A DNA stretch of 64,000 nucleotides from Nitrosopumilus sp. (GCA_963662625.1 OY759726.1:1056001-1120000); one strand, 5' to 3'; positions 18,144 through 54,638 are shown, counted from the first letter of the stretch. Program-made: numbers and translations. Notes: generated by a model not told the origin, from the sequence alone.

Positions 18144-18190
18144 TAGCCACCCGGGCGCAGTTGCCCCGATGGATCGGCGCCCGGCAGCGC
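18144..18190 (+). repeat. Solo degenerate copy of the IS110 left end
   Basis: TAGCCACCCGGGCGCAGTTGCCCCGATGGATCGGCGCCCGGCAGCGC aligns ungapped to 7460-7506. Confidence 0.75.
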
Positions 18191-18642
18191 TACGGCACGG
18201 TGATGCCCTTCGTGAAAGAGAGCGAGTTCTGCTCAAAGCCGAGGCGCCTGTAGAACTTGTGGGACTCTTTGCGCACGTTTGCCGACTCCAGCCTTATCCT
18301 GTGGCACCTCTTCTTCTTTGCGTGCGCTATGCACGCGTTGACCAGCCTCTTGCCAGTCCCGCGGTTCCGGTGCCCGCTGTGCACTATGAGCTCCGCGATG
18401 TACAGCTCCGGCGTCAGGCGGTTCAGCCTCGGCAGCAGCACCATGCTTGCCATCCCGACCACCTCCCCGTCCTCCCTGGCCACGATGATCCTCTTGTCGG
18501 GATCCGAGGTGTACCTCTTCACCATCCCCTCGAACGCCCTGGCGTCCGCGTCCTTTTGCGGCCTCGGGCGGCCCAGCGCATACGACAGCTCCAGTATCGC
18601 CGGGGCGTCCCGGTACGTTGCGCTCCTTATGGCGGCGGCCAT
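18190..18642 (-). CDS. GNAT-family N-acetyltransferase
   Basis: LYIAELIV..HRNRGTGKRL, HKFYRRLGF. Confidence 0.88.
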   Translation of the reverse strand: MAAAIRSATYRDAPAILELSYALGRPRPQKDADARAFEGMVKRYTSDPDKRIIVAREDGEVVGMASMVLLPRLNRLTPELYIAELIVHSGHRNRGTGKRLVNACIAHAKKKRCHRIRLESANVRKESHKFYRRLGFEQNSLSFTKGITVP

Positions 18643-18756
18643 GGTGACAGTATCACCGTAAAATAAAAAAACGTTGCACAAAACCGTCCCGGTGCGCGCT
18701 CCGCGGCAGGGGCCGCCCGGGGGGCCCGCCCCGGGCTCCGGCGGGGCCTCCGCCGG

Positions 18757-19914
18757 TCAGACCTGGTCCCGGTACATCCGGATCACCTTCTCGTACATCG
18801 CGTCCTGGCCGTACGTAGACTCTAGCACCCCGCGGCCGTTTCTTCCCATCTCGGCTGCCTTCTGGCAGTCGTCGACGCAGTCGATCATCCTGCCAGCCCA
18901 CGCGACGCCGTCCCGGGAGCCGATGACGTACCCCGTCCTGCCGTCCTCCACGATGTCCGACGCCGGCCTCACGTCGGACACCAGCACGGGCTTGTTCTGC
19001 AGGAACGCCTCGAGTATGACCAGGCCGAACCCCTCGCAAAGGCTCGGAAACACCATCGCGGCAGACTCCGCGATGATCCTCTCCTTCTCCCGGGCCCCCA
19101 CGTGCCCCGCGAACCTCACGTGCCGTCCGAGCCCCATGTCCCTGACCATCTCCTCCAGCGCCCCCCTGTGCGGGCCGTCGCCGACTATGACCAGCCTGAT
19201 CCCGGGCCTCTTCTGCCTCGCGATGCCGACCGCCTCGATCACCACCTCCAGGTTCTTGTAAAAGACCAGCCTTCCCACGAACACGAACTGCGACGGGTCC
19301 GTCTTGGAGCCGCGCACGGCCTCCCCGTCCACCGCGTTGTGGATCACGTAGACGGGTTTTTTTGCGCCGAACCTCACAAGGTCGTCCCTGCTCGCCTCGC
19401 TCACGGTGTGGATGCAGTCGAGGCGGAGCCTGGTCGCCAGCCTCTCGAAGAACGGCGCGAGCATGACGCTGATCCTCGACACGCCGTTCTGCGAGCCCCA
19501 CCTCCTCCAGTAGTCCCTCCCGCACAGCGAGAACACGTCGTGGATGGTCGTGACGTGCGGCCTGCCGGTGACCGACGAGAGGAGCGATCCGGCAAGCGCC
19601 GGCGCGAAGTTGTTGGAGTGGATGATCTCGATCCCGTGCTCCCTCACGAGCCGCCTGCCCTCCCTGGCGGCGTTTGCCACGTACCTCAGGTTGTCCAGGA
19701 ACCCGGCCGGCATGCCCCCACTGTACTCCAGGGTGGGCCTCACGAAGACCACGTTGGCCCCGGCGGCGTCCCCGTACTGCTCCCCCCTTATCCGGTTCGT
19801 GACGACCCACACGGAGTTGCCGTTCTCCGCCAGCTTCCTTGCGAGCATGTGGAACACGTACTCCCCGCCGCCGCGCGTGGTAGAGAAGAACTGGGACAGC
19901 AGGAGCACCTTCAT
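18757..19914 (-). CDS. GT4 glycosyltransferase
   Basis: FVGRLVFYKN, VGDGP, PSLCEGFGLVILEA. Confidence 0.93.
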   Translation of the reverse strand: MKVLLLSQFFSTTRGGGEYVFHMLARKLAENGNSVWVVTNRIRGEQYGDAAGANVVFVRPTLEYSGGMPAGFLDNLRYVANAAREGRRLVREHGIEIIHSNNFAPALAGSLLSSVTGRPHVTTIHDVFSLCGRDYWRRWGSQNGVSRISVMLAPFFERLATRLRLDCIHTVSEASRDDLVRFGAKKPVYVIHNAVDGEAVRGSKTDPSQFVFVGRLVFYKNLEVVIEAVGIARQKRPGIRLVIVGDGPHRGALEEMVRDMGLGRHVRFAGHVGAREKERIIAESAAMVFPSLCEGFGLVILEAFLQNKPVLVSDVRPASDIVEDGRTGYVIGSRDGVAWAGRMIDCVDDCQKAAEMGRNGRGVLESTYGQDAMYEKVIRMYRDQV

Positions 19915-19920
19915 GGCGTG

Positions 19921-20670
19921 CTAGTCACCCGGCTTCTTCCCGTCCAGGATCCCAAGGTAGTCGTTTATCACCCTGCCCGGCTCCCCCTCGCTTGCGATCC
20001 TCCCGTCCTCCAGCATTATGGCCCTGTCGCACAGGCTGTCCACCGAACTGAGGTCGTGCGAGACGAAGACTATGGTCTTCTTGGCCTCCTTGAACCTCAT
20101 GAACGCCTCGTAGCTCTTCTTCTGGAACGGCGGGTCCCCCACGGCCAGGACCTCGTCGACCAGTATGATGTCGGGGTTTATCCGGACCGCCGTCGCGAAC
20201 GCCAGGCGCATGGCCATCCCCGTCGAGAACTTTTTCAGCTTGACGTTCCTGAACCTTTCTAGCTCCGCAAAGCCGATTATCTCGTCCACCATCCCGGTGA
20301 TCTGGCCGTGGGAAAACCCCAGGATCTTCCCGTAAAACACCACGTTGTCCCTGGCCGACAGCTCCGGGTTGAACCCAGTCCCCAGCGACAGCAGCGGGAC
20401 CATGCTGCCACTGATCCTGATCTCCCCGGAGTCGGGCCTGTAGATCCCGGCAATGAGGCGGAGGAGGGTGGTCTTCCCTATGCCGTTCCGGCCCACGATC
20501 CCGAACATCTCGCCCTTCCTCACCTCGAAGGAGACGTTCCTGAGTATGCCTATCTCGGAGTCGTCCCCGGCCCTGCTGAACACCGAGTCCCTGCTCCTGG
20601 TCTTGAACCGCTTGCTTACAGAGTCCACCTCTATGGCGTTTCCCGGGATCCTGCTACAGCTCCTCAACAA
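19921..20670 (-). CDS. wzt: Polysaccharide ABC exporter ATPase (Wzt/TagH type), no C-terminal carbohydrate-binding domain
   Basis: GRNGIGKTT, FNPELSARDN, FSTGMAMRLAFA, LVDEVLAVGD; about 249 aa only. Confidence 0.92.
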   Translation of the reverse strand: MLRSCSRIPGNAIEVDSVSKRFKTRSRDSVFSRAGDDSEIGILRNVSFEVRKGEMFGIVGRNGIGKTTLLRLIAGIYRPDSGEIRISGSMVPLLSLGTGFNPELSARDNVVFYGKILGFSHGQITGMVDEIIGFAELERFRNVKLKKFSTGMAMRLAFATAVRINPDIILVDEVLAVGDPPFQKKSYEAFMRFKEAKKTIVFVSHDLSSVDSLCDRAIMLEDGRIASEGEPGRVINDYLGILDGKKPGD

Positions 20671-21427
20671 TCCTGAACTCGTAACGTTTGAATATAATGT
20701 ATCCTACTACGAGGATCCCGACCGAGAATGCCGCGGTGTACGCCATGGCAAAGGCAGACGGCAGCTGCCCGTACAGCGCGGCGCCGTGGGCCATGTCCAG
20801 GAACTGCGCCACCGGGTTGATCAGGAGTATCCTGCCCATCTCCTCCGGGAATATGCTGATGTCGTAGATCACCGGCGTCAGGAAGAACCCGGCGTACGTG
20901 GCGATCGTCCACACGTTCTGCACGTCCCTGAACCTGACGTACACCACCGAAAGGATGAACGAGATGCCCAGCGTCATGCAGAACAGCAGCGCCACGAGCA
21001 CCGGCAGCAAGAGTATCGTGGCCTCCGGGACGAACCGGAACCCCGCCACGAACCCGAAGAACACCACGAACTCGACCCCCAGCATGATGAACGCGGTGAC
21101 GCAGGAACTGATCGGGAGTATGCCCCTCGGGAAGTACGTCTGGTTGACGATCCCCGCCCTGGCCAGGATGCTCCCTAGCCCCGTGCTGGTGGAGCGCGCA
21201 AAGTAGTTCCACATTATGATTCCCAGCAGGAGGTAGAGCGGGTAGTTCTCGATGTCCGACTTGAACACGTGGGAGAAGATCAGGTACAGGATCCCGAGCA
21301 TCAGCATGGGCTCCAGGAACGACCACAGCGCCCCCAGCAGGGATCCCTTGTAGCGGATGATCAGGTCGTTCACGGCAAACGTCCTTATCAGCGAACGGTT
21401 CTCCCATATCTCGCTTGGCGGCATCAC
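20654..21427 (-). CDS. wzm: Polysaccharide ABC exporter permease (Wzm/TagG type)
   Basis: RYKGSLLGALWSFLEP, RFRDV, FFLTPVIY, INPVA; multiple TMs. Confidence 0.92.
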   Translation of the reverse strand: MMPPSEIWENRSLIRTFAVNDLIIRYKGSLLGALWSFLEPMLMLGILYLIFSHVFKSDIENYPLYLLLGIIMWNYFARSTSTGLGSILARAGIVNQTYFPRGILPISSCVTAFIMLGVEFVVFFGFVAGFRFVPEATILLLPVLVALLFCMTLGISFILSVVYVRFRDVQNVWTIATYAGFFLTPVIYDISIFPEEMGRILLINPVAQFLDMAHGAALYGQLPSAFAMAYTAAFSVGILVVGYIIFKRYEFRIVEEL

Positions 21428-21448
21428 CGGAATGTCGCACCTCTTGTT

Positions 21449-22582
21449 TTATATCTCGTTTGCCCGCCCCCCGCAGAACCTGCGGATCAGGCCGGCCATC
21501 TCGGCGGCCTTGCCCTCCCAGTCGTTCTGCCTCGCCACGTCCTGCCCGGCCGCCGCGTCGTGGCCCTGCCCGGCGGCCGACTCGACGTGCCCCAGGAACT
21601 CCTCGTGACTCTTTGCCACCCTGCATATGCCGCCGAACCTGCCCAGCTCGGGCAGCTCCGTGGTGACCGTGGGCTTGCCCGAGGCCATGTACTCGTAGAA
21701 CTTGTTCGGGTTCACGCTGCGGGTCAGCCTGTTGACTAGGAACGGGATTATGCACACGTCAAACGCCTTGACGTACCCGGGGAGCTCCCGGTAGTCCTTC
21801 CTGCCAAGGACGTGCAGGTTCCCGGACCTCATCTGCCTCAGGCGCCTCCTCTGCCTCGGGGGGGCCCACCCGATCAACACTACCGACGCGTCGGGGAACC
21901 TCCGCAGGATCTTCTCCAGCAGGTCAAAGTCAAACCACTCCCCCATGGCCCCCACGTACCCTATGACGGGCCGCGCGATGCCCCGCACCTCCGCCGCGAC
22001 CTCCGTCCCCTCCTGCGAGGCCTTCCCAAAATGCGCCGCGTCCACGCCGTTTCCCACTAGGAAGATCTCCTTCCTGCCCCTGAACCTCTCCAGGATGCTC
22101 TCCGACGGGGTGAACATCACGTCGGATCTTGCCTCCAGGACGCCTATGTACTCCTCGAGCCAGGGGCCGGTGGCGTCGAACTCCCTGACGTCGTCCGTGA
22201 TGTCGTAGCAGACCAGGGACTCGCCCAGGCTGCCTATCACGCACGAGTACCTCGGCTTGTAAAACAGCAGGACCGGCTCGCGGATTCCCCTGTCCCTCAG
22301 GATTTTTTTCATCCCCCTGGTTATGATCCGGTCGTTGCCCCTCCGGCCAAAGCCGATCCTGTCTGCCAGCGGGATCGTGGGGACCGACACCACCTCCACG
22401 TTCTCCCGCACCATGCGGCTCCTCCTGAACGGCGTCCTGGCGATGATGCTCCACGCGATCGACAGCCAGAACGACGGCTCGACGTACAGCACCTTCCAGT
22501 CGCTCGGGAACCGGGAGACCATCTGCTGCTGCCTCTGCCAGAGGAAGTTCCAGGTGATGTCCGAAAAGCAAACTATCTGCAA
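21449..22582 (-). CDS. GT-B glycosyltransferase (TuaH-like)
   Basis: LWQRQQQ, YDITDD, NGVD, IGYVGAMGEWFD, NPNKFYEYMASGKP; TTG start at 22582. Confidence 0.88.
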   Translation of the reverse strand: MQIVCFSDITWNFLWQRQQQMVSRFPSDWKVLYVEPSFWLSIAWSIIARTPFRRSRMVRENVEVVSVPTIPLADRIGFGRRGNDRIITRGMKKILRDRGIREPVLLFYKPRYSCVIGSLGESLVCYDITDDVREFDATGPWLEEYIGVLEARSDVMFTPSESILERFRGRKEIFLVGNGVDAAHFGKASQEGTEVAAEVRGIARPVIGYVGAMGEWFDFDLLEKILRRFPDASVVLIGWAPPRQRRRLRQMRSGNLHVLGRKDYRELPGYVKAFDVCIIPFLVNRLTRSVNPNKFYEYMASGKPTVTTELPELGRFGGICRVAKSHEEFLGHVESAAGQGHDAAAGQDVARQNDWEGKAAEMAGLIRRFCGGRANEI

Positions 22583-22721
22583 TACATGACTCAGGCCCGG
22601 TTTGGCGATTAAAGTTTTTGTAGGGGTATGGCCCGCCGGCTCCGGCGGGGCAGTTCCCGACAGGCTGCGCCGCGTCCCGCGCCTGAAAATACAGAAATAG
22701 ATCTTCCCAGCAAAACTTGGA

Positions 22722-23528
22722 ATGGCAAAAAACCTCGAAAAGGTGTTCAAGGCAAAAACTCGGCTCCTTGACGAGCTGCAGCACGTCCTGGAAGCCAAGA
22801 TCGAGGCAATCACGGAGCTGGAGCGGTCGCTCGAGGAGAAGACCGGCGCCGTCACGGAGCTGGAGCGGTCGCTCGAGGAGAAGACCGGCGCCGTCACGGA
22901 GCTGGAGCGGTCGCTCGAGGAGAAGACCGGCGCCGTCACGGAGCTGGAGCGGTCGCTCGAGGAGAAGACCGGCGCCGTCACGGAGCTGGAGCGGTCGCTC
23001 GAGGAGAAGACCGGCGCCGTCACGGAGCTGGAGCGGTCGCTCGAGGAGAAGACCGGCGCCGTCACGGAGCTGGAGCGGTCGCTCGAGGAGAAGACCGGCG
23101 CCGTCACGGAGCTGGAGCGGTCGCTCGAGGAGAAGACCGGCGCCGTCACGGAGCTGGAGCGGTCGCTCGAGGAGAAGACCGGCGCCGTCACGGAGCTGGA
23201 GCGGTCGCTCGAGGAGAAGACCGGCGCCGTCACGGAGCTGGAGCGGTCGCTCGAGGAGAAGACCGGCGCCGTCACGGAGCTGGAGCGGTCGCTCGAGGAG
23301 AAGACCGGCGCCGTCACGGAGCTGGAGCGGTCGCTCGAGGAGAAGACCGGCGCCATGGCGGGGCTGCAAGAGTCGCTCGACGGGAAGGCGGCCGACGCCA
23401 AGCTGCTGGAAGGGAAACTGAAGGCAAGCCAAAACGAGGCGGCGCAGCAGAAGGCGGAGATCGACTCGCTGAAGAGCTCGCTGTCCTACAGAATCGGAAA
23501 GAGGTTCGGCTCCAAGCCCGCGGGCTAG
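22722..23528 (+). CDS. Stand-alone coiled-coil protein with 13 x 14-aa repeats and a C-terminal amphipathic motif
   Basis: (TELERSLEEKTGAV) x13 followed by IDSLKSSLSYRIGKRF. Confidence 0.8.
   Translation: MAKNLEKVFKAKTRLLDELQHVLEAKIEAITELERSLEEKTGAVTELERSLEEKTGAVTELERSLEEKTGAVTELERSLEEKTGAVTELERSLEEKTGAVTELERSLEEKTGAVTELERSLEEKTGAVTELERSLEEKTGAVTELERSLEEKTGAVTELERSLEEKTGAVTELERSLEEKTGAVTELERSLEEKTGAVTELERSLEEKTGAMAGLQESLDGKAADAKLLEGKLKASQNEAAQQKAEIDSLKSSLSYRIGKRFGSKPAG
22811..23354 (+). repeat. Perfect 42-bp tandem repeat, 13 copies
   Basis: CACGGAGCTGGAGCGGTCGCTCGAGGAGAAGACCGGCGCCGT repeated head-to-tail without spacers. Confidence 0.97.
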
Positions 23529-23622
23529 CGCGGGCAGCGGCCCGCGGGGATCCGGCCCCGCGGCTTCGGGTGAGGTGCCAGGAAATAAACAGATAATTGG
23601 AGCGGGGCGCGATCGTTAACCG

Positions 23623-24426
23623 TTGCAAGACAAGGTGTCAAAGGCGGGGGGCGGTTCCCAGGCCGGCGGACCTGGCGCAGGATCCGTCCCGCGGGAGGAA
23701 TCGCGCGATCCCATCGAGGACGAACTCTCCGTGTACATGCGCTCGGATCTCTCGCCCGCGGAGAGGGCGAGGCTGATCGGGAGGCTGTGGCAGAGGCTGG
23801 CCTCGACCGAGTTTGCCCACGGCGAGTCCCTTTCCATGCAGCCCGCGCTGGCTGACATGTGCGTCGATTCCAAATCCAACATGCTGGACGAGTGGGAGCT
23901 CGCATGCCTCTGCTCCTGCATCGTAAACTTTGACTGGAAGCCCGACGACTACCTGATAGAGATCGGGACGAACATAGGCCAGACCGCCGTATTCATGGCC
24001 AAGGTGCTCCGGTCGATGGGCCTTGGCACGAAGATCATCAGCGTGGACCCGTTCTCCTTCGCGGCCGACAAGATGCTCAACCCGAAAGGAAACTACTCCT
24101 ACTATGTCACGCTCACCAGGCAGCAAAACGTCAACGACATGTGCATCCCGGTGACGGCGTTCTCCCAGGACATCCCGCACATCTTCAAGGAAAACGTGGG
24201 GGTGTTGCTCGTGGACGGCTCCCACCAGTACGAGGACGTGAAAAAAGACCTCGATTACTACTCCGGGCTGGTCAGGCCGAACGGATACGTCTTCGTGGAC
24301 GACTATAACGCCTCAAACTACCCCGGCGTGTACGGGGCGTTCGACGAGTGGCTTGCCGGCTATGACAACTTTGAGCTGTCCTACAAGGACAGCTACTTTG
24401 TAATAGCGAAAAAGATCCGTGACTAG
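23623..24426 (+). CDS. Class I SAM-dependent methyltransferase (Methyltransf_24-like)
   Basis: IEIGTNIGQT, SVDPF, LLVDGSHQYEDVKKD, GYVFVDDY. Confidence 0.88.
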   Translation: MQDKVSKAGGGSQAGGPGAGSVPREESRDPIEDELSVYMRSDLSPAERARLIGRLWQRLASTEFAHGESLSMQPALADMCVDSKSNMLDEWELACLCSCIVNFDWKPDDYLIEIGTNIGQTAVFMAKVLRSMGLGTKIISVDPFSFAADKMLNPKGNYSYYVTLTRQQNVNDMCIPVTAFSQDIPHIFKENVGVLLVDGSHQYEDVKKDLDYYSGLVRPNGYVFVDDYNASNYPGVYGAFDEWLAGYDNFELSYKDSYFVIAKKIRD

Positions 24427-24604
24427 CGCCGCTCCCGACCCGCGCTGGCATTGCGGCCCGGCCGGTGGGGCCCCCCCGCGCCCCCGTCCCAGGACGGCCC
24501 GGCGTCCCCGCCGCGGGCGGCCCCGGGGCCCGCCGCGCACGTGGCTGCAGCAAAGCCGCGGGTTGATAGCAAAACAAGTATAGGGACTTTTTTCTGGTAC
24601 TTAC

Positions 24605-27505
24605 ATGTTGAGCGAAGATCCTACGACGGAGGCAGACTCGCAAAAGCCCTCGCTCTGGGACGGGATAGCGGCGCAGTACCGCACCGCGCCGGACCGGGGG
24701 GAGGCCGAGATCGCGGGGGAGCTCGAGTCCATCCTGGAGGGCCTCGGGGTGCGCGCCGGCTCCGCCCTGCTGGAGGCGGGATCCGGCAGCGGGCACATAT
24801 CCTCGCTCCTTGCGTCAAAGGGGTACAGGACCACGCTCCTCGACTTTAGCAAGGCCGCGCTGAAAAAATCAAAGCGGCTCTACAAGAAGAACGGCCTGGA
24901 CGGGATCTTCGTCCACTCCGACCTGTTTGACATCTCCGCCGAGTCCGTGGGCACCCATGACGTCGTGTGGAACTCCGGGGTCTTGGAGCACTTTGACGGC
25001 TGGCAGATCATCGAGGCGATGCAGAAGATGGCGTCCGTCGCCAAGAAATTCGTGATAATACTGGTCCCGAACTCTAACAGCTCCGAGTACATGGAGTTTA
25101 GGAAGAAGGCGCTGGAGGACGGCGCGTGGCAGTGGGGGCTGGAGATACTGCGCGAGGACATGAGGGACATGGCCGCGATCTCCGGCCTGGAGGTGGTGGA
25201 GGAGCGGTTCGTGGGGACCACCCACCTGAAATACTTTAAAGACTACGCAAAGCCGGTCGAGGACGCCGACGATCCAGATGGCATTCCCGACGACGAGAAG
25301 TACCTCAGGGTAATAGTGGCAAGGCCAGCCCCCCCGGCGCCGCCCGACCGGGAACTGGAGGCCGCCGCGCTGTCCAGGATCCTCCGGAACGACTCGGAGG
25401 CCCTGCGCCGGACGTACTACAACGACATCACGATCCTTATGGATCGGCTCAAGTCGCTCGGGGCCAAGGCAGGCGAGGACAAGGCCTTCATCGCCCAGCT
25501 GAAAACCGATTTTGCCTCCTCGCGGCAGACGATAGCGACCCTGGAGGGGAACCTCTCCACGTCGCTCCAGACGGCGGCCGACCTGGAGGGGGATCTTGCC
25601 TCCTCGCGGCAGACGATAGCGACCCTGGAGGGGAACCTCTCCGGGTCGCTCCAGACCATAGCCAACCTCGAAGGCGACCTCTCCACGTCGCTCCAGACGG
25701 CGGCCGACCTGGAGGGGGATCTTGCCTCCTCGCGGCAGACGATAGCGACCCTGGAGGGGAACCTCTCCGGGTCGCTCCAGACCATAGCCAACCTCGAAGG
25801 CGACCTCTCCACGTCGCTCCAGACGGCAGCCGACCTGGAGGGGGGCCTTGCCGCCTCGCGGCAGACCATAGCCGACCTGGAGGGGGGCCTTGCCGCCTCG
25901 CGGCAGACCATAGCCGACCTGGAGGGGGGCCTTGCCGCCTCGCGGCAGACCATAGCCGACCTGGAGGGGGGCCTTGCCGCCTCGCGGCAGACCATAGCCG
26001 ACCTGGAGGGGGGCCTTGCCGCCTCGCGGCAGACCATAGCCGACCTGGAGGGTGACCTCCTGGCCCAGAAAAAGATCAACTCCGACCTTGCCGACGAGAA
26101 CCTCGCCCTGGGCCGGGCCTTGGAATTCGAACGGCAGAAGATCGACACGCTGCTGAACACAAAGACGTGGAAGCTCACGAGGCTGTACGAGAAGAAGTTC
26201 CAAGGAAACGTCCTGGGGAGGATGATAGAAAAGACTGTCGACCTGGCCCTGAAGGGCCAGAAGGACAGCGGCGCTGCGCCGCAGGCAGCCGCGGAGGCCC
26301 CGGACGCCGCGCCTGCCGCAGCGGAGGCCCCGGACGCCGCGCCACAAGAAGCGCAGAAGAAGAATGCCCACCTAGAGGCCCTCCGGGAGATAATACGGGA
26401 GAACGGGGGCGTCAAGGGGATCGTCGTCTACCCGCCCACGGTCGACTGGAACATCCCGCTCCTCCAGAGGCCGCAACACATGGCATCCCACCTGGCCCGG
26501 AACAACTGGCTGTATTTTTACTGCACCACGAACGCCTATGACAAGGTCAGCGGCTTTGAGAAGATATCTGACCGGCTCTACCTGACCGATCGATTCGACG
26601 AACTGGTGGGGGAACTGGACTCCTTCTTCGCCTTCGTGCACAGCGCGCACCCCACCCTGACGATCCCCGATCTCGAGGGCCTGGGGAAGAAGGCGATGCT
26701 GGTGTACGACTACCTCGACGAGATCCACCCCGACGTCAGCGGGCTCAACCCCCGGGACGTCCTGGACCGGCACACCCACATGATGAAGAACAGCACGGCG
26801 GTGGTCGCCACCGCCGGGAAGCTGTTCTCCGACGTGGCAGAACTGCGCCGGGACAACGTCTACCTGCTCCCGAACGCGGTGGACTATGACCACTTCCACA
26901 GGACCCGGGATCCGGGGGCGATCCCCAAGGAGATCAGGCCGATCAGGGAGTCCGGAGGGCCGATCCTGGGATACTTTGGCGCCATAGCAAAGTGGTTTGA
27001 CTACGAGCTGATCAAGGAGGTGGCCCGGGCCCGGCCGGACTGGAACATCGTCCTGATCGGCTGGGACTATGACAAGACGGTCGGCAAGAGCGGGATCGAC
27101 GAGTTCGAGAACATACACTACCTTGGCATAAAGGAGTACGGCATCCTGCCAGAATACGCCGTGTGGTTTGACGTGTGCATCCTGCCGTTCCTCGTAAACG
27201 ACATCACCAACTCCACGTCCCCGATAAAGCTCTTTGAGTACATGGCGCTAGGCAAACCCATAGTCGCGACCCCGATAAGGGAGGTGGGCAACTACAAGAG
27301 CCCGCTCGTGGCCGGCGGCCCGGGGGAGTTCGTCGAAAAGGTCGAGCAGGCGCTCAAGCTCGGGGGAGACCGGGATTACCTCGAGCTGGTGGACGGGGAG
27401 GCCAGGGGCAACACCTGGAAGAAGAGGTTTGACGACCTGGACGGGATACTGGAATCGCTGCTGGAGCGGGGAGGCCAGGGGCAACGCTTGGAAGAAGGGC
27501 CTTGA
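24605..27505 (+). CDS. Multidomain methyltransferase - repeat coiled coil - glycosyltransferase
   Basis: N-terminal LEAGSGSG/WNSGVLEHF; central 14-aa repeats; C-terminal QRPQH, YDYLDE, GYFGAIAKWFD, SPIKLFEYMALGKP. Confidence 0.92.
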   Translation: MLSEDPTTEADSQKPSLWDGIAAQYRTAPDRGEAEIAGELESILEGLGVRAGSALLEAGSGSGHISSLLASKGYRTTLLDFSKAALKKSKRLYKKNGLDGIFVHSDLFDISAESVGTHDVVWNSGVLEHFDGWQIIEAMQKMASVAKKFVIILVPNSNSSEYMEFRKKALEDGAWQWGLEILREDMRDMAAISGLEVVEERFVGTTHLKYFKDYAKPVEDADDPDGIPDDEKYLRVIVARPAPPAPPDRELEAAALSRILRNDSEALRRTYYNDITILMDRLKSLGAKAGEDKAFIAQLKTDFASSRQTIATLEGNLSTSLQTAADLEGDLASSRQTIATLEGNLSGSLQTIANLEGDLSTSLQTAADLEGDLASSRQTIATLEGNLSGSLQTIANLEGDLSTSLQTAADLEGGLAASRQTIADLEGGLAASRQTIADLEGGLAASRQTIADLEGGLAASRQTIADLEGGLAASRQTIADLEGDLLAQKKINSDLADENLALGRALEFERQKIDTLLNTKTWKLTRLYEKKFQGNVLGRMIEKTVDLALKGQKDSGAAPQAAAEAPDAAPAAAEAPDAAPQEAQKKNAHLEALREIIRENGGVKGIVVYPPTVDWNIPLLQRPQHMASHLARNNWLYFYCTTNAYDKVSGFEKISDRLYLTDRFDELVGELDSFFAFVHSAHPTLTIPDLEGLGKKAMLVYDYLDEIHPDVSGLNPRDVLDRHTHMMKNSTAVVATAGKLFSDVAELRRDNVYLLPNAVDYDHFHRTRDPGAIPKEIRPIRESGGPILGYFGAIAKWFDYELIKEVARARPDWNIVLIGWDYDKTVGKSGIDEFENIHYLGIKEYGILPEYAVWFDVCILPFLVNDITNSTSPIKLFEYMALGKPIVATPIREVGNYKSPLVAGGPGEFVEKVEQALKLGGDRDYLELVDGEARGNTWKKRFDDLDGILESLLERGGQGQRLEEGP
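25508..26053 (+). repeat. 13 x 42-bp in-frame repeat with higher-order structure
   Basis: Units DLASSRQTIATLEG / NLSGSLQTIANLEG / DLSTSLQTAADLEG (126-bp block twice), then GLAASRQTIADLEG x5. Confidence 0.93.
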
Positions 27506-27544
27506 CGACCTGGACGGGATGCTGGAATCGCTGCTGGAGCGGGG
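27399..27544 (+). repeat. 73-bp tandem duplication at the 3' end of the MTase-GT gene
   Basis: 27399-27471 vs 27472-27544, six mismatches. Confidence 0.9.
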
Positions 27545-27928
27545 CTAGCTGCACTCCGTGCTCCAAGTGGCCTTGTGATCCTTTCCGTCGTCGAGGAACT
27601 CGCTGCTCTTGGCGCACATCGTGGTGTTCTTTATCTCGGTGTTCTGGATCGCGTCGACCTTGACGTCCATGCGCCTGAACTTCTTGCCGTCCTCCTCCGC
27701 GGTGTAGGGGTCGCTTGTCACCACGTTGAACTCGTAGGTGTAGGTGGTGGTGTCGCCCTTCTTGGGGTTGTTGGCGTACGATCTAGCGGTGACCCCGAAC
27801 TCCTTGCTCTGACCGCCGTACTTTATGTCGCACCTCTCGGCGTCCACGGTATAGTACACCCTGATCCCGATGTTCTGGTTCAGGGCCTCGATGAAGAACA
27901 CCGTGTCCCAGCCCTTGATCTCAGACAA
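27545..27928 (-). CDS. Hypothetical 127-aa beta-rich protein
   Basis: TTG start, GC3-rich codons, AT-rich box upstream; no family recognised. Confidence 0.65.
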   Translation of the reverse strand: MSEIKGWDTVFFIEALNQNIGIRVYYTVDAERCDIKYGGQSKEFGVTARSYANNPKKGDTTTYTYEFNVVTSDPYTAEEDGKKFRRMDVKVDAIQNTEIKNTTMCAKSSEFLDDGKDHKATWSTECS

Positions 27929-27955
27929 CGTACGTGTGTGGGCGCCGCCCTTTTA

Positions 27956-29023
27956 TTAACTGTCGCGATTCAGCCTGCGGACGATCTTCCCCGCGGCGCT
28001 CCCGTTCCCGAACGGGCTCTTCCAGCCACGGTCCCTTTTTGCCATGGCCTGAGCGCACCTGAGGACGCGGCCCGGCTCGGTGCCCGCCACCATGTTCGCG
28101 CCCGCGGCCACCGTCTCGGGCCTCTCCGTGTTGTCCCGCAGCGTCACGCACGGGACCCCCAGTATGCACGCCTCCTCCTGGATCCCCCCCGAGTCTGTCA
28201 TCACGAGCATCGCGTCCTTCTGCATCCCCAGGAACGAGAAATAGTCGGCCGGCCGCACCACCATGGTCTTGCCAAAGCTGATCCCGAACTTCCTTGCCAT
28301 CTTCCTAGAGCGGGGGTGCATCGGGTACACCACCGGCACCCGGAACCTCCGGGCGACCAGGTCCAGTGACTCCGCTATTCTCCCGAACCTGGCCGGGTCG
28401 TCGACGTTCTCCTGCCTGTGGACCGAGGCCAGGATATAGCCGCGCAGCCCCTCGACGCGGCCCGGTTTTTTCGCGTATCTTATGTTCTGGAGCACCGCGT
28501 CTGCTATCGTGTTTCCAGTTACCGATATCCTCTTCCGCGGTATCCCCTCGCCAAGCAAGATCTCCCTCGTCTCCGGGGTGGGGGCAAAGAGGTAGTCCGA
28601 GCAGTGGTCCGTCAGCCTCCTGTTTACCTCCTCGGGCATGCCCATGTCGTAGCTCCTGAGGCCCGCCTCCACGTGCCCCACGGGGACGCCGGCCTTGCTT
28701 GCGGCGATTGCAGCCCCGAGCACCGTGTTCGTGTCCCCTTGGACCAGGATCGCGTCCGGCCTGTCCCCCGCGAGGATCCTCTCGGTTCCGGCGATTACCA
28801 GCGCGGTCTGCCTCCCGGGCCGGCCCGATCCCACGTCCAGCCTGTACTTGGGCCTGGGTAGCCCCAGCTGTTCGAAGAAGACCCCGTCAAGGCCGTAGGA
28901 GTAGTGCTGCCCCGAGTGGATGACGTAGTGGTCGATGCCCTCCGCCTCGAGCTTCCTTATCACCGGCGACATCTTGATTATCTCGGGGCGCGTGCCCACC
29001 GCGACTGCGATCTTTTCGGCCAA
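27956..29023 (-). CDS. wecB: UDP-N-acetylglucosamine 2-epimerase (non-hydrolysing)
   Basis: GTRPEIIKM, GQHY, VQGDTNT, HVEAGLRS, PEEVNR, TDSGGIQEEA, TERPE. Confidence 0.95.
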   Translation of the reverse strand: MAEKIAVAVGTRPEIIKMSPVIRKLEAEGIDHYVIHSGQHYSYGLDGVFFEQLGLPRPKYRLDVGSGRPGRQTALVIAGTERILAGDRPDAILVQGDTNTVLGAAIAASKAGVPVGHVEAGLRSYDMGMPEEVNRRLTDHCSDYLFAPTPETREILLGEGIPRKRISVTGNTIADAVLQNIRYAKKPGRVEGLRGYILASVHRQENVDDPARFGRIAESLDLVARRFRVPVVYPMHPRSRKMARKFGISFGKTMVVRPADYFSFLGMQKDAMLVMTDSGGIQEEACILGVPCVTLRDNTERPETVAAGANMVAGTEPGRVLRCAQAMAKRDRGWKSPFGNGSAAGKIVRRLNRDS

Positions 29024-29151
29024 CCCTGATCCGTCCAAGCCGGAGCCTGCAATATACTTTGATGGCGCGCCGGTGCGTGGCGCCATGGCTCCCCGGATCC
29101 GCGCGGCCCACGATCGATACGCCTTTGATCCGGCAGGCCCAAGCTAGGCGC

Positions 29152-54423: not shown

Positions 54424-54610
54424 GCGCCGTGGAGCTGGCGCCATCCGGTGCGCCGTGGAGCTGGCGCCATCCGGTGCGCCGTGGAGCTGGCGCCATCCGG
54501 TGCGCCGTGGAGCTGGCGCCATCCGGTGCGCCGTGGAGCTGGCGCCATCCGGTGCACCGTGGAGCTGGCGCCATCCGGTGCGCCGTGGAGCTGGCGCCAT
54601 CCGGTGCACC
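54424..54610. repeat. 26-bp non-coding tandem repeat, 7 copies
   Basis: GCGCCGTGGAGCTGGCGCCATCCGGT x7 (one GCACC variant) plus a partial copy. Confidence 0.95.
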
Positions 54611-54638
54611 ATGGGCCATCATCATGTGTGATGGTAGC

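Follow-up and report, generated by a model that had tools for sequence, protein, structure and literature searches.

Coiled-coil rulers are an accepted means of setting polysaccharide length in pathways that depend on ATP-binding cassette (ABC) transporters. The available text of PMC11231755 places a chain terminator at the distal end of such a ruler and the polymerising glycosyltransferase (GT) modules at the opposite end. For example, Klebsiella O7 ORF6 is described as a fusion of methyltransferase(-kinase), coiled coil and GT, with some orthologues that stop after the coiled coil (PMC11231755). In the accessible portion of PMC5082667, WbdD is a homotrimer, and the modal chain length goes up or down with insertions or truncations in its coiled coil. 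Across the literature searched (partial texts, with most subscription journals outside it), rulers are described as bacterial and as homo-oligomers of one protein. Here, we analyse a 64,000-nucleotide stretch from Nitrosopumilus sp. (GCA_963662625.1, OY759726.1:1056001-1120000; hereafter the window, with positions counted from its first letter) that carries two coiled-coil genes in one surface-glycan gene cluster. One encodes a fusion of methyltransferase, coiled coil and GT; the other encodes a stand-alone coiled-coil protein, which we call the partner, as we do its relatives.

A preliminary description of this locus had noted that the two coiled coils differ in sequence and match in length, and had proposed that the proteins pair or measure the same distance. 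Our analysis leads us to favour, tentatively and from sequence patterns, a parallel two-protein stalk whose halves would lie side by side at equal length and be tuned by repeat slippage.

Two genes with arrays of 42-bp units

The fusion protein (966 amino acids, aa) runs from an N-terminal methyltransferase domain through a coiled-coil stalk, a short motif and a linker into a GT domain (Table 1). Its stalk holds an unbroken heptad register over 248 residues, with position a 94% hydrophobic and 0 prolines. AlphaFold2 models the GT domain with a mean predicted local distance difference test score (pLDDT) of 87.4, and its best Foldseek matches are glycogen synthase 3fro and MshA 3c4q (E ~1e-13 to 1e-14, template modelling score ~0.6-0.67), of the retaining GT4 type. 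The Pfam family PF13692 (Glyco_trans_1_4) scores 37.7 bits against a cut-off of 27; some sources call homologues of this domain TuaH-like. The partner (268 aa) is simpler. Its heptads run without a break for ~250 residues, with hydrophobic residues at 100% of the a positions and no proline, and it is predicted by AlphaFold2 from the single sequence to form one helix over residues 2-262 (mean pLDDT 89.8).

Relatives of the fusion's GT half number 167 at E <= 0.001 in a large protein collection; they are archaeal and bacterial, and many have the order methyltransferase, linker, GT. The fusion itself is scarce. Its GT half was found in 3 of 401 family genomes (E <= 1e-60), and a class-level search for the fusion returned 2 of 401 (E <= 1e-50). 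An order-level search with P0014, a fusion with a stalk of 207 residues, gave 1 of 401 genomes, the window's own, and the species-genome searches gave no further locus with both genes. The stalk of another fusion, P0002, has 115 residues. Among 15 relatives inspected, the stretch from YYxD to K-T-W-K-L varies widely and is often made of lineage-specific tandem units of 11, 14, 21 or ~32 residues. Near-identical fusions in one 90% cluster measure 785, 799 and 831 aa, close relatives in separate clusters measure 753 aa, and all differ by whole units.

Both stalks of the window contain arrays of a 42-bp unit, which encodes 14 residues or two heptads. Tandem Repeats Finder (TRF) places array A, in the partner gene, at 22810-23354 and gives it a period of 42, 13.0 copies and 100% matches. 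The protein reads ITELERSLEEKTGA followed by 12 copies of VTELERSLEEKTGA over residues 30-211; 12 of the units are identical in DNA and the first has one base different, which bears out the thirteen 42-bp units of the preliminary description. Thirteen units of another sequence had also been claimed for array B, in the fusion gene. Here, TRF likewise gives period 42 with 13.0 copies (80% matches; alternatively period 126 x 4.3, 89%), and in the protein a series of 12 full units begins at residue 310, with IADLEGDLLAQKKI added at 478. Since a half-degenerate unit, IAQLKTDFASSRQT, precedes them at residue 296, the count depends on the chosen ends and becomes a range of 13 to 14 units. Independent growth of the arrays had been proposed as well, and their structure agrees with it. 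The seed units differ, and array B is layered: an older 126-bp super-repeat of three-unit blocks is accompanied by a younger part of 4 identical IADLEGGLAASRQT units and one with a single-codon difference.

Perfect 546-bp arrays are too long for short reads, and short-read contigs of three coded runs of one study (X1 and X3 among them), which may stem from the assembly's own sample, end at both of them, so that mis-assembly of perfect repeats has to be considered as the source of the copy numbers. We regard this as very improbable. One contig of 1,858,698 bases makes up the whole genome, and read depth in run X1 speaks for the assembled lengths. The unitig of the array A unit has a depth of 438.1 against flanks of 35-36.4, that of the identical array B units 177.1 against 36.4-41.5, and that of the array B super-repeat 82.3 against 36.4. 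The resulting ratios (~12.0-12.5, 4.3-4.9 and ~2.2) lie close to the 31-mer multiplicities predicted from the window for the same stretches (12.0, 4.64 and 2.10), and this fit indicates that the arrays were neither inflated nor collapsed by the assembler. Run X3, in which 0.35 of the sampled words occur and depth is low, contributed nothing to this comparison.

Short-read contigs may also record a second form of the fusion gene. They join 25272 to 26323 (X1) or to 26293 (X3) with just 12 other letters between, at depths of 15.8 and 8.4, respectively, versus ~36 for the main form. The X1 join amounts to a net loss of 1038 nt, in frame, and such a variant would lack the entire stalk together with the motif; alternatively, the join could be a chance junction from another organism in GC-rich low-complexity sequence. 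The end points of the two joins differ by a 30-bp AEAPDAAPAA mini-repeat.

The 3' end of the fusion gene carries a repeat of another kind, a 73-bp tandem duplication at 27385-27544 (2.2 copies, 90% matches). A length of 73 does not divide by 3, so that reading passes from the first copy into the second in another frame, which adds the tail GQGQRLEEGP. The ancestral ending ...ESLLERG, followed by a stop, persists in the second copy.

A split gene and a shared post-stalk motif

As judged from its homologues, the 268-aa partner is the split-off N-terminal half of a family composed of coiled coil, motif, linker and Methyltransf_24, and the methyltransferase is the next gene (23623). In eight database proteins, one chain leads from this N-terminal peptide and coiled coil through the S-Y-[KR] motif and a linker to Methyltransf_24 (P0121, P0125-P0129, P0131 and P0132, the last of which ends inside its methyltransferase part). 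In the alignment of nine, the partner has the peptide M-x-x-N/D-L-E-K/R-E-F... directly before the heptads, and the motif E-[IL]-[DE]-S-x-[KR]-x-x-x-S-Y-[KR]-[IM]-G-[KR]-x-[FY]-G closes the stalk in 9 of 9 sequences, the partner included. Its polypeptide has no Methyltransf_24: a stop codon stands at 23526-23528, six residues behind the motif. The likeness is clearest in P0121 (468 aa), found by a word-based search with the 268-aa protein, which shows the same N-terminal peptide and three 14-residue units, including IEGLERSLEEKTSA. It continues with the motif EIDSMKNLLSYKIGKSFG, an acidic low-complexity linker and a Methyltransf_24 domain 72% identical to the protein encoded at 23623.

A programmed frameshift joining both open reading frames (ORFs) was considered and rejected. 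The methyltransferase ORF lies in a different frame from the coiled-coil ORF, and because a stop codon immediately precedes its start in that frame, no simple frameshift joins the two. A short-read contig spanning 23325-25541 has 0 differences to the window.

The preliminary description had suggested that the rod might act in trans for either of two enzymes. Its link with the methyltransferase at 23623 is now strong, as eight proteins fuse the same coiled coil and motif to that enzyme; no evidence of a link appeared for the divergent GT at 21449. Reading the rod as a WbdD-like arm that keeps this methyltransferase at a distance is not supported. In fused relatives, the enzyme lies behind the motif, that is, at the end that corresponds to the fusion's GT, and not at the far tip.

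Close relatives add some detail. The N-terminal peptide of the partner is also present in the same-genus genome G001, where no stop interrupts the methyltransferase frame as it passes through a (QDVS)n repeat up to the contig edge. A search for the missing middle of the G001 partner gave one weak match (E 0.05), judged unrelated, and metagenome and genome contig scans anchored on the methyltransferase at 23623 returned just distant relatives (25-38% identity) and no usable loci. On L046 (G001:C106), positions 1-120, the linker before Methyltransf_24 is a 12-bp (QDVS)n tandem repeat that runs up to the contig edge. The linker in relatives is likewise low-complexity and length-variable (protein lengths: P0125, 380 aa; P0126, 398 aa; P0121, 468 aa), so that a second, disordered element of the partner also changes by repeats.

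The stalks end alike. Fusions share ...LLNTKTWKLTxLYEKKFxG..., Methyltransf_24 partners share ...NLLSYKIGKxFG..., and in the G270 clade the same gene position is taken by a 387-aa Methyltransf_23 protein with a coiled coil and the motif ...SRSYRLAQIYGKKLAG.... Compared as sequences, the post-stalk motifs of these three protein classes are clearly related. The two end motifs recognised earlier in the window, IDSLKSSLSYRI and IDTLLNTKTWKL, are both present, and the placing of their aromatic residues is as first described: Y256 and W522 each occupy the 45th position, counted from M212 and I478, respectively. The "last units" from which these counts start are not equivalent, being a degenerate 14th unit in array A and the 13th in array B. 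What stands is the shared 14-residue phase; the offset between the arrays is one unit or none, according to whether one includes the half-degenerate unit at residue 296. At the place where WbdD has a membrane-binding amphipathic helix, the conserved motif is basic and aromatic (net charge +4), with a low helical hydrophobic moment (0.07-0.12). Only two ORFs in the genome have a coiled coil followed by this motif, both at this locus. Each such locus therefore has two proteins that combine a stalk with the motif. A library-wide search with the 67-residue motif stretch gave 4 matches, one of them an unrelated 2020-aa T-Q ester-bond domain protein.

Stalk lengths, core layers and a putative two-protein ruler

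We measured the partner stalk from M1 to the motif Tyr, and the fusion stalk from the Asp of YYxD to the motif Trp. In this genome, the two are 255 and 248 residues long (the latter from D274 of YYND to W522), one heptad apart. Among relatives, whose pairs were assigned from the equal size of the encoding contigs in collection tables and verified directly on L044 (8,687 bases), partner and fusion measure 73 and 73 on three contigs of one lineage, 101 and 101 on one contig, and 101 and 84 on two contigs of a lineage with 11-residue repeats. Most steps in stalk length are multiples of seven. A further cluster look-up yielded no additional partner-fusion pairs.

On the earlier question of whether the two lengths co-vary across relatives, they agree within one heptad in 3 of 4 paired lineages, whereas the G270 clade, with a partner of another type, varies independently. 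Across the four lineages, which are few and mutually related, the partner-fusion differences sum to 24 residues; 2 of 24 permutations equal that, the floor of the test, which was chosen once the data had been seen. When partner lengths were resampled from nine clusters, so close a fit had P = 0.007.

Could two arrays have reached the same size by chance? Expanding repeats within coding sequence appears to be a general habit of this genome. Of its 117 non-overlapping tandem arrays with TRF scores >= 100, 25 count as young and stay in frame, several of them at 100% identity over 10-31 copies. Examples in this genome (G000) are C1:1045077-1045668, 615794-616354, 1198128-1198566 and 302612-302988. 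Four arrays have period 42; three further 42-bp arrays have 3.3-4.4 copies, and two of these lie at weak matches of the coiled-coil protein query. Elsewhere in the window, a 26-bp unit is repeated 7.3 times at 54424-54614 with 97% identity, a period that is not a multiple of three. Outside the window, G000:C1:1686219-1690976 has TRF periods of 220 and 364 with a unit beginning GCTTCAATGGGGCCGTAACTTCTACGTTACGGAAAT, and looks like a CRISPR array (repeat with spacers).

In a genome with this habit, the arrays may have expanded independently and neutrally, and the stand-alone protein may be a fission leftover with little or no function. Coiled coils with a 14-residue period invite 42-bp slippage, and among the 300 pairs of the 25 young in-frame arrays, the rounded copy number is equal in 4.3%, and the lengths differ by no more than 6 bp in 1.3% and by no more than 42 bp in 12%. 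Moreover, array A has no substitutions and is hence very young, stalk lengths are independent in the G270 clade, and the enzyme of the partner is now detached. Such a coincidence is, however, somewhat unlikely in our judgement, as exact matches recur at two other lengths in relatives (73/73 and 101/101; the resampling result above applies here) and the N-terminal peptide is kept in G001 and the eight fused relatives. The frame is also intact across 13 slippage-prone units, and the core layers are complementary across both families.

These layers become visible when the heptad register is fixed from the aromatic residue of the motif. The d positions of the partner family alternate between Leu and Lys along the whole stalk; those of the fusion family alternate Leu with Glu, Gln, Ser, Asp or Asn. 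This genome excluded, eight partner relatives have Lys or Arg at 32 of 97 d residues and Asp or Glu at 0, and seven fusion relatives have Asp or Glu at 14 of 86 and Lys or Arg at 1. With the two stalks of this genome aligned at their aromatics, 15 of 16 partner d-Lys lie opposite a polar fusion d residue (13 Ser, 1 Gln, 1 Asp) and every Leu layer lies opposite Leu, compared with 0 of 16 d-Lys opposite a polar residue after a shift of +7 or -7. Complementary cores of this kind would point to hetero-pairing of the stalks.

They also bear on a different arrangement, in which the two proteins form separate rods of equal height. That is, each would be a homo-oligomer standing on a common base (membrane, exporter or polymerase) by way of the shared motif, and both would reach the same glycan point. 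Separate rods account for the length match equally well, the shared motif would supply a common docking point, and there is precedent in the WbdD homotrimer (the part of PMC5082667 consulted). The register between the stalks, which is inconsistent among lineages (shift 0 here, +7 in two relatives), would also matter less. On the other hand, in a bundle made of partner chains alone, Lys would lie on Lys in every second d layer, once per 14 residues and in 16 layers here. A parallel bundle of both proteins would be free of such stacking, and in this we see the strongest structural pointer to pairing. In addition, the partner's far tip in fused relatives consists of a 29-residue peptide only, with no enzyme, and gives a separate rod no obvious thing to measure. 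On balance, we consider separate rods unlikely.

An antiparallel stalk was set aside, because d positions would then face a layers, which are 94-100% hydrophobic, and because the shared motif also favours a common end. Complex prediction with fusion residues 255-560 and the whole stand-alone protein, run without controls, returned a score of 0.00 and a mark of 0.34, which gives no answer either way.

Our tentative reading of a side-by-side, two-protein stalk would work as follows. The cluster is expected to build a surface glycan by the ABC-transporter-dependent route. The GT at the base of the fusion would extend the chain, and the methyltransferase, held ~250 helical residues away (~37 nm at 0.15 nm per residue), would cap those chains long enough to reach it. 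The stand-alone rod would supply the stalk portion of another protein in this machine and lie along the fusion stalk; its own stalk would bring, or would once have brought, the Methyltransf_24 enzyme to the GT end. The two stalks would most likely form a parallel hetero-oligomeric coiled coil in which partner d-Lys faces fusion Ser, Gln, Glu or Asp, and they would be equal in length because they lie side by side. Slippage of the 42-bp (two-heptad) unit in each gene would shift a stalk by ~2 nm with the heptad register kept. Relative to the P0003/P0121 pair, both stalks here would have gained ~150 residues, the partner going from 101 residues to 255 and the fusion from 101 residues to 248, with a longer glycan as the expected outcome. 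A bolder version of this reading is a coupled two-gene contingency system, in which the stalks zip via alternating Leu and Lys-(Ser/Glu) layers and glycan length is reset in ~2 nm steps only when both arrays change. We see it as possible, though doubtful.

Several observations weigh against the two-protein stalk. Array A is wholly young and array B is layered, so that the two did not grow in step; array A has either caught up recently or undergoes continual homogenisation. The pair in the lineage with 11-residue repeats is 17 residues off, and the three relatives without this genome give P = 0.10. In the G270 clade, the fusion stalk measures 59 (G270 itself), 91, 105 or 137 residues and the Methyltransf_23 partner on the same contigs is unchanged. 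This is the independent change that the preliminary description had named as counting against co-variation, in a clade where the partner is of another type. The clade also has a partner variant with 14 additional residues (387 vs 401 aa), on contigs with the fusion outside view. Nearer to home, the same-genus G001 fusion has no array, and its 90% cluster representative P0006, from which the figure is taken in place of the contig-derived G001 ORF, has a stalk of 80 residues (82 from YY to W). Contig ends cut the G001 partner, whose coiled-coil gene breaks within the first unit.

The core layers are subject to similar reservations. In two relatives, the Lys-polar match is best at a one-heptad stagger (+7; 4 of 5 and 3 of 3) and not at shift 0, so the register relative to the motif is not conserved, and the hendecad-repeat lineage shows no Lys-polar layer match. 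As each array copies one unit, the in-phase layers of this genome are worth about one bit. Finally, a phmmer search of the fusion against PDB sequences, with 22 matches at E up to 1, retrieved neither WbdD nor WbbB; its best match was a generic S-adenosylmethionine (SAM) methyltransferase (4nec, E 3e-4).

If the two-protein stalk is real, a second stalk that tracks the first gives a natural co-variation test of the ruler idea, and the locus would point to hetero-specific coiled-coil pairing built on alternating charged layers in the core. Ammonia-oxidising archaea would then be able to alter surface-glycan length by repeat slippage, with possible consequences for grazing and for the attachment of viruses. 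Should the match be chance, the locus is still a clear archaeal repeat-built ruler with a gene fission at a disordered linker.

The glycan cluster and its place among described rulers

The two genes lie in a surface-glycan cluster of ~11 kb (18190-29086) that, by Pfam, comprises Wzm- and Wzt-like genes, three GTs, two methyltransferases and a 2-epimerase (Table 1). Housekeeping genes and a subtilase flank the block, and GTs are present on either side of the ABC2_membrane and ABC_tran genes (19921-21427). The divergent GT at 21449 is a paralogue of the fusion GT domain, with 34% identity to fusion residues 698-951, and its TTG start at 22582 agrees with the N-termini of the G001 and G270 orthologues. 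A longer minus-strand ORF, 21449-23401, was rejected as a gene beyond 22582; the remainder is antisense of array A. The 127-aa ORF directly behind the fusion gene has a counterpart in the same place in G001 (139 aa), and as it is kept there, it is probably part of the cluster.

Table 1. Features of the cluster and of the two coiled-coil genes, in window positions
Feature	Position	Strand	Basis or remark
GNAT acetyltransferase, left edge of cluster	18190..18681	-	Pfam Acetyltransf_1, E 1.4e-21
GT4 glycosyltransferase	18757..19914	-	Pfam Glycos_transf_1, E 6.2e-35; Glyco_transf_4
ABC exporter ATPase (Wzt-like), 249 aa	19921..20670	-	Pfam ABC_tran, residues 43-174
ABC-2 permease (Wzm-like)	20654..21427	-	Pfam ABC2_membrane, E 8.7e-11
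Divergent GT-B glycosyltransferase	21449..22582	-	Pfam Glyco_trans_1_4; TTG start 22582
Stand-alone coiled-coil protein, 268 aa	22722..23528	+	ORF; AlphaFold2; heptads; fused homologues
Array A, 13 units of 42 bp (14 aa, two heptads)	22809..23354	+	in 268-aa ORF
Stand-alone post-stalk motif EIDSLKSSLSYRIGKRFG	23457..23519	+	kept in 9/9 partner-family sequences
Methyltransf_24 / CmcI-like O-methyltransferase, separate gene	23623..24426	+	Pfam PF13578, E 5.9e-16; PF04989, E 2.4e-8
966-aa fusion: methyltransferase, coiled coil, motif, linker, glycosyltransferase	24605..27505	+	ORF, Pfam, 167 homologues
N-terminal class I SAM methyltransferase domain, putative chain terminator	24737..25204	+	Pfam Methyltransf_25/11/23, residues ~50-199
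Fusion stalk, I275 (just after D274 of YYND) to W522	25427..26170	+	unbroken heptads, no Pro
Array B, 13.0 units of 42 bp	25512..26058	+	in 966-aa ORF
Fusion post-stalk motif IDTLLNTKTWKLTRLYEKKFQGNVLGRMIEKTVDLAL	26138..26245	+	kept in 13/13 fusions inspected
GT-B glycosyltransferase domain, GT4-like, residues 591-955	26375..27469	+	AlphaFold2, Foldseek, Pfam PF13692
ORF of 127 aa, directly behind fusion gene	27545-27928	-	no Pfam match
UDP-N-acetylglucosamine 2-epimerase, right edge of cluster	27956..29086	-	Pfam Epimerase_2, E 4.3e-103

In the O9a and O12 prototypes, the exporter ATPase carries a C-terminal carbohydrate-binding module that reads the capped chain end. That module is without counterpart in the Wzt-like protein here: the ATPase is a nucleotide-binding domain alone, its 249 aa leave no space for a C-terminal module, and the G270 orthologue is of similar size (250 aa). 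This, too, counts against a ruler of the prototype sort at this locus.

Among described systems, Klebsiella pneumoniae O7 ORF6 resembles the fusion in its order of methyltransferase terminator (N-terminal), coiled-coil ruler and GT module(s) (C-terminal), and in belonging to a Wzm/Wzt cluster with a further stand-alone GT (PMC11231755, available text). It differs in its kinase, its domain resembling a carbohydrate-binding module and its two GT2 modules, whereas the fusion here has one GT-B domain (GT4-like), no kinase and an archaeal host. The consulted text of PMC11231755 describes no second coiled-coil protein of matched length beside O7 ORF6 ("heteromeric" and "hetero-oligomer" occur 0 times in it). 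WbdD, which works with WbdA in E. coli O9a and K. pneumoniae O3, likewise carries a methyltransferase head on an extended parallel coiled coil (PMC5082667, PMC11231755, both in part); its stalk length sets the modal chain length, and its post-stalk region anchors the protein and recruits the polymerase. Unlike the fusion, it is a homotrimer with a kinase and has no GT of its own. WbbB of K. pneumoniae O12 and Raoultella terrigena also combines an N-terminal terminator, a middle coiled coil and C-terminal polymerising GTs in one protein. It differs in that its terminator is a Kdo transferase and in its two GT modules, and the same portion of PMC11231755 describes no partner stalk for it.

Judged by its anatomy, and not by sequence homology, the fusion belongs to the WbdD/WbbB/O7 ORF6 kind of ruler. 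The design of terminator, ruler and polymerase is already known from bacteria and is met here in a Nitrosopumilaceae-type archaeon. Within the literature searched, what is new at this locus is the detached coiled-coil half, the matched stalk lengths and the complementary cores.

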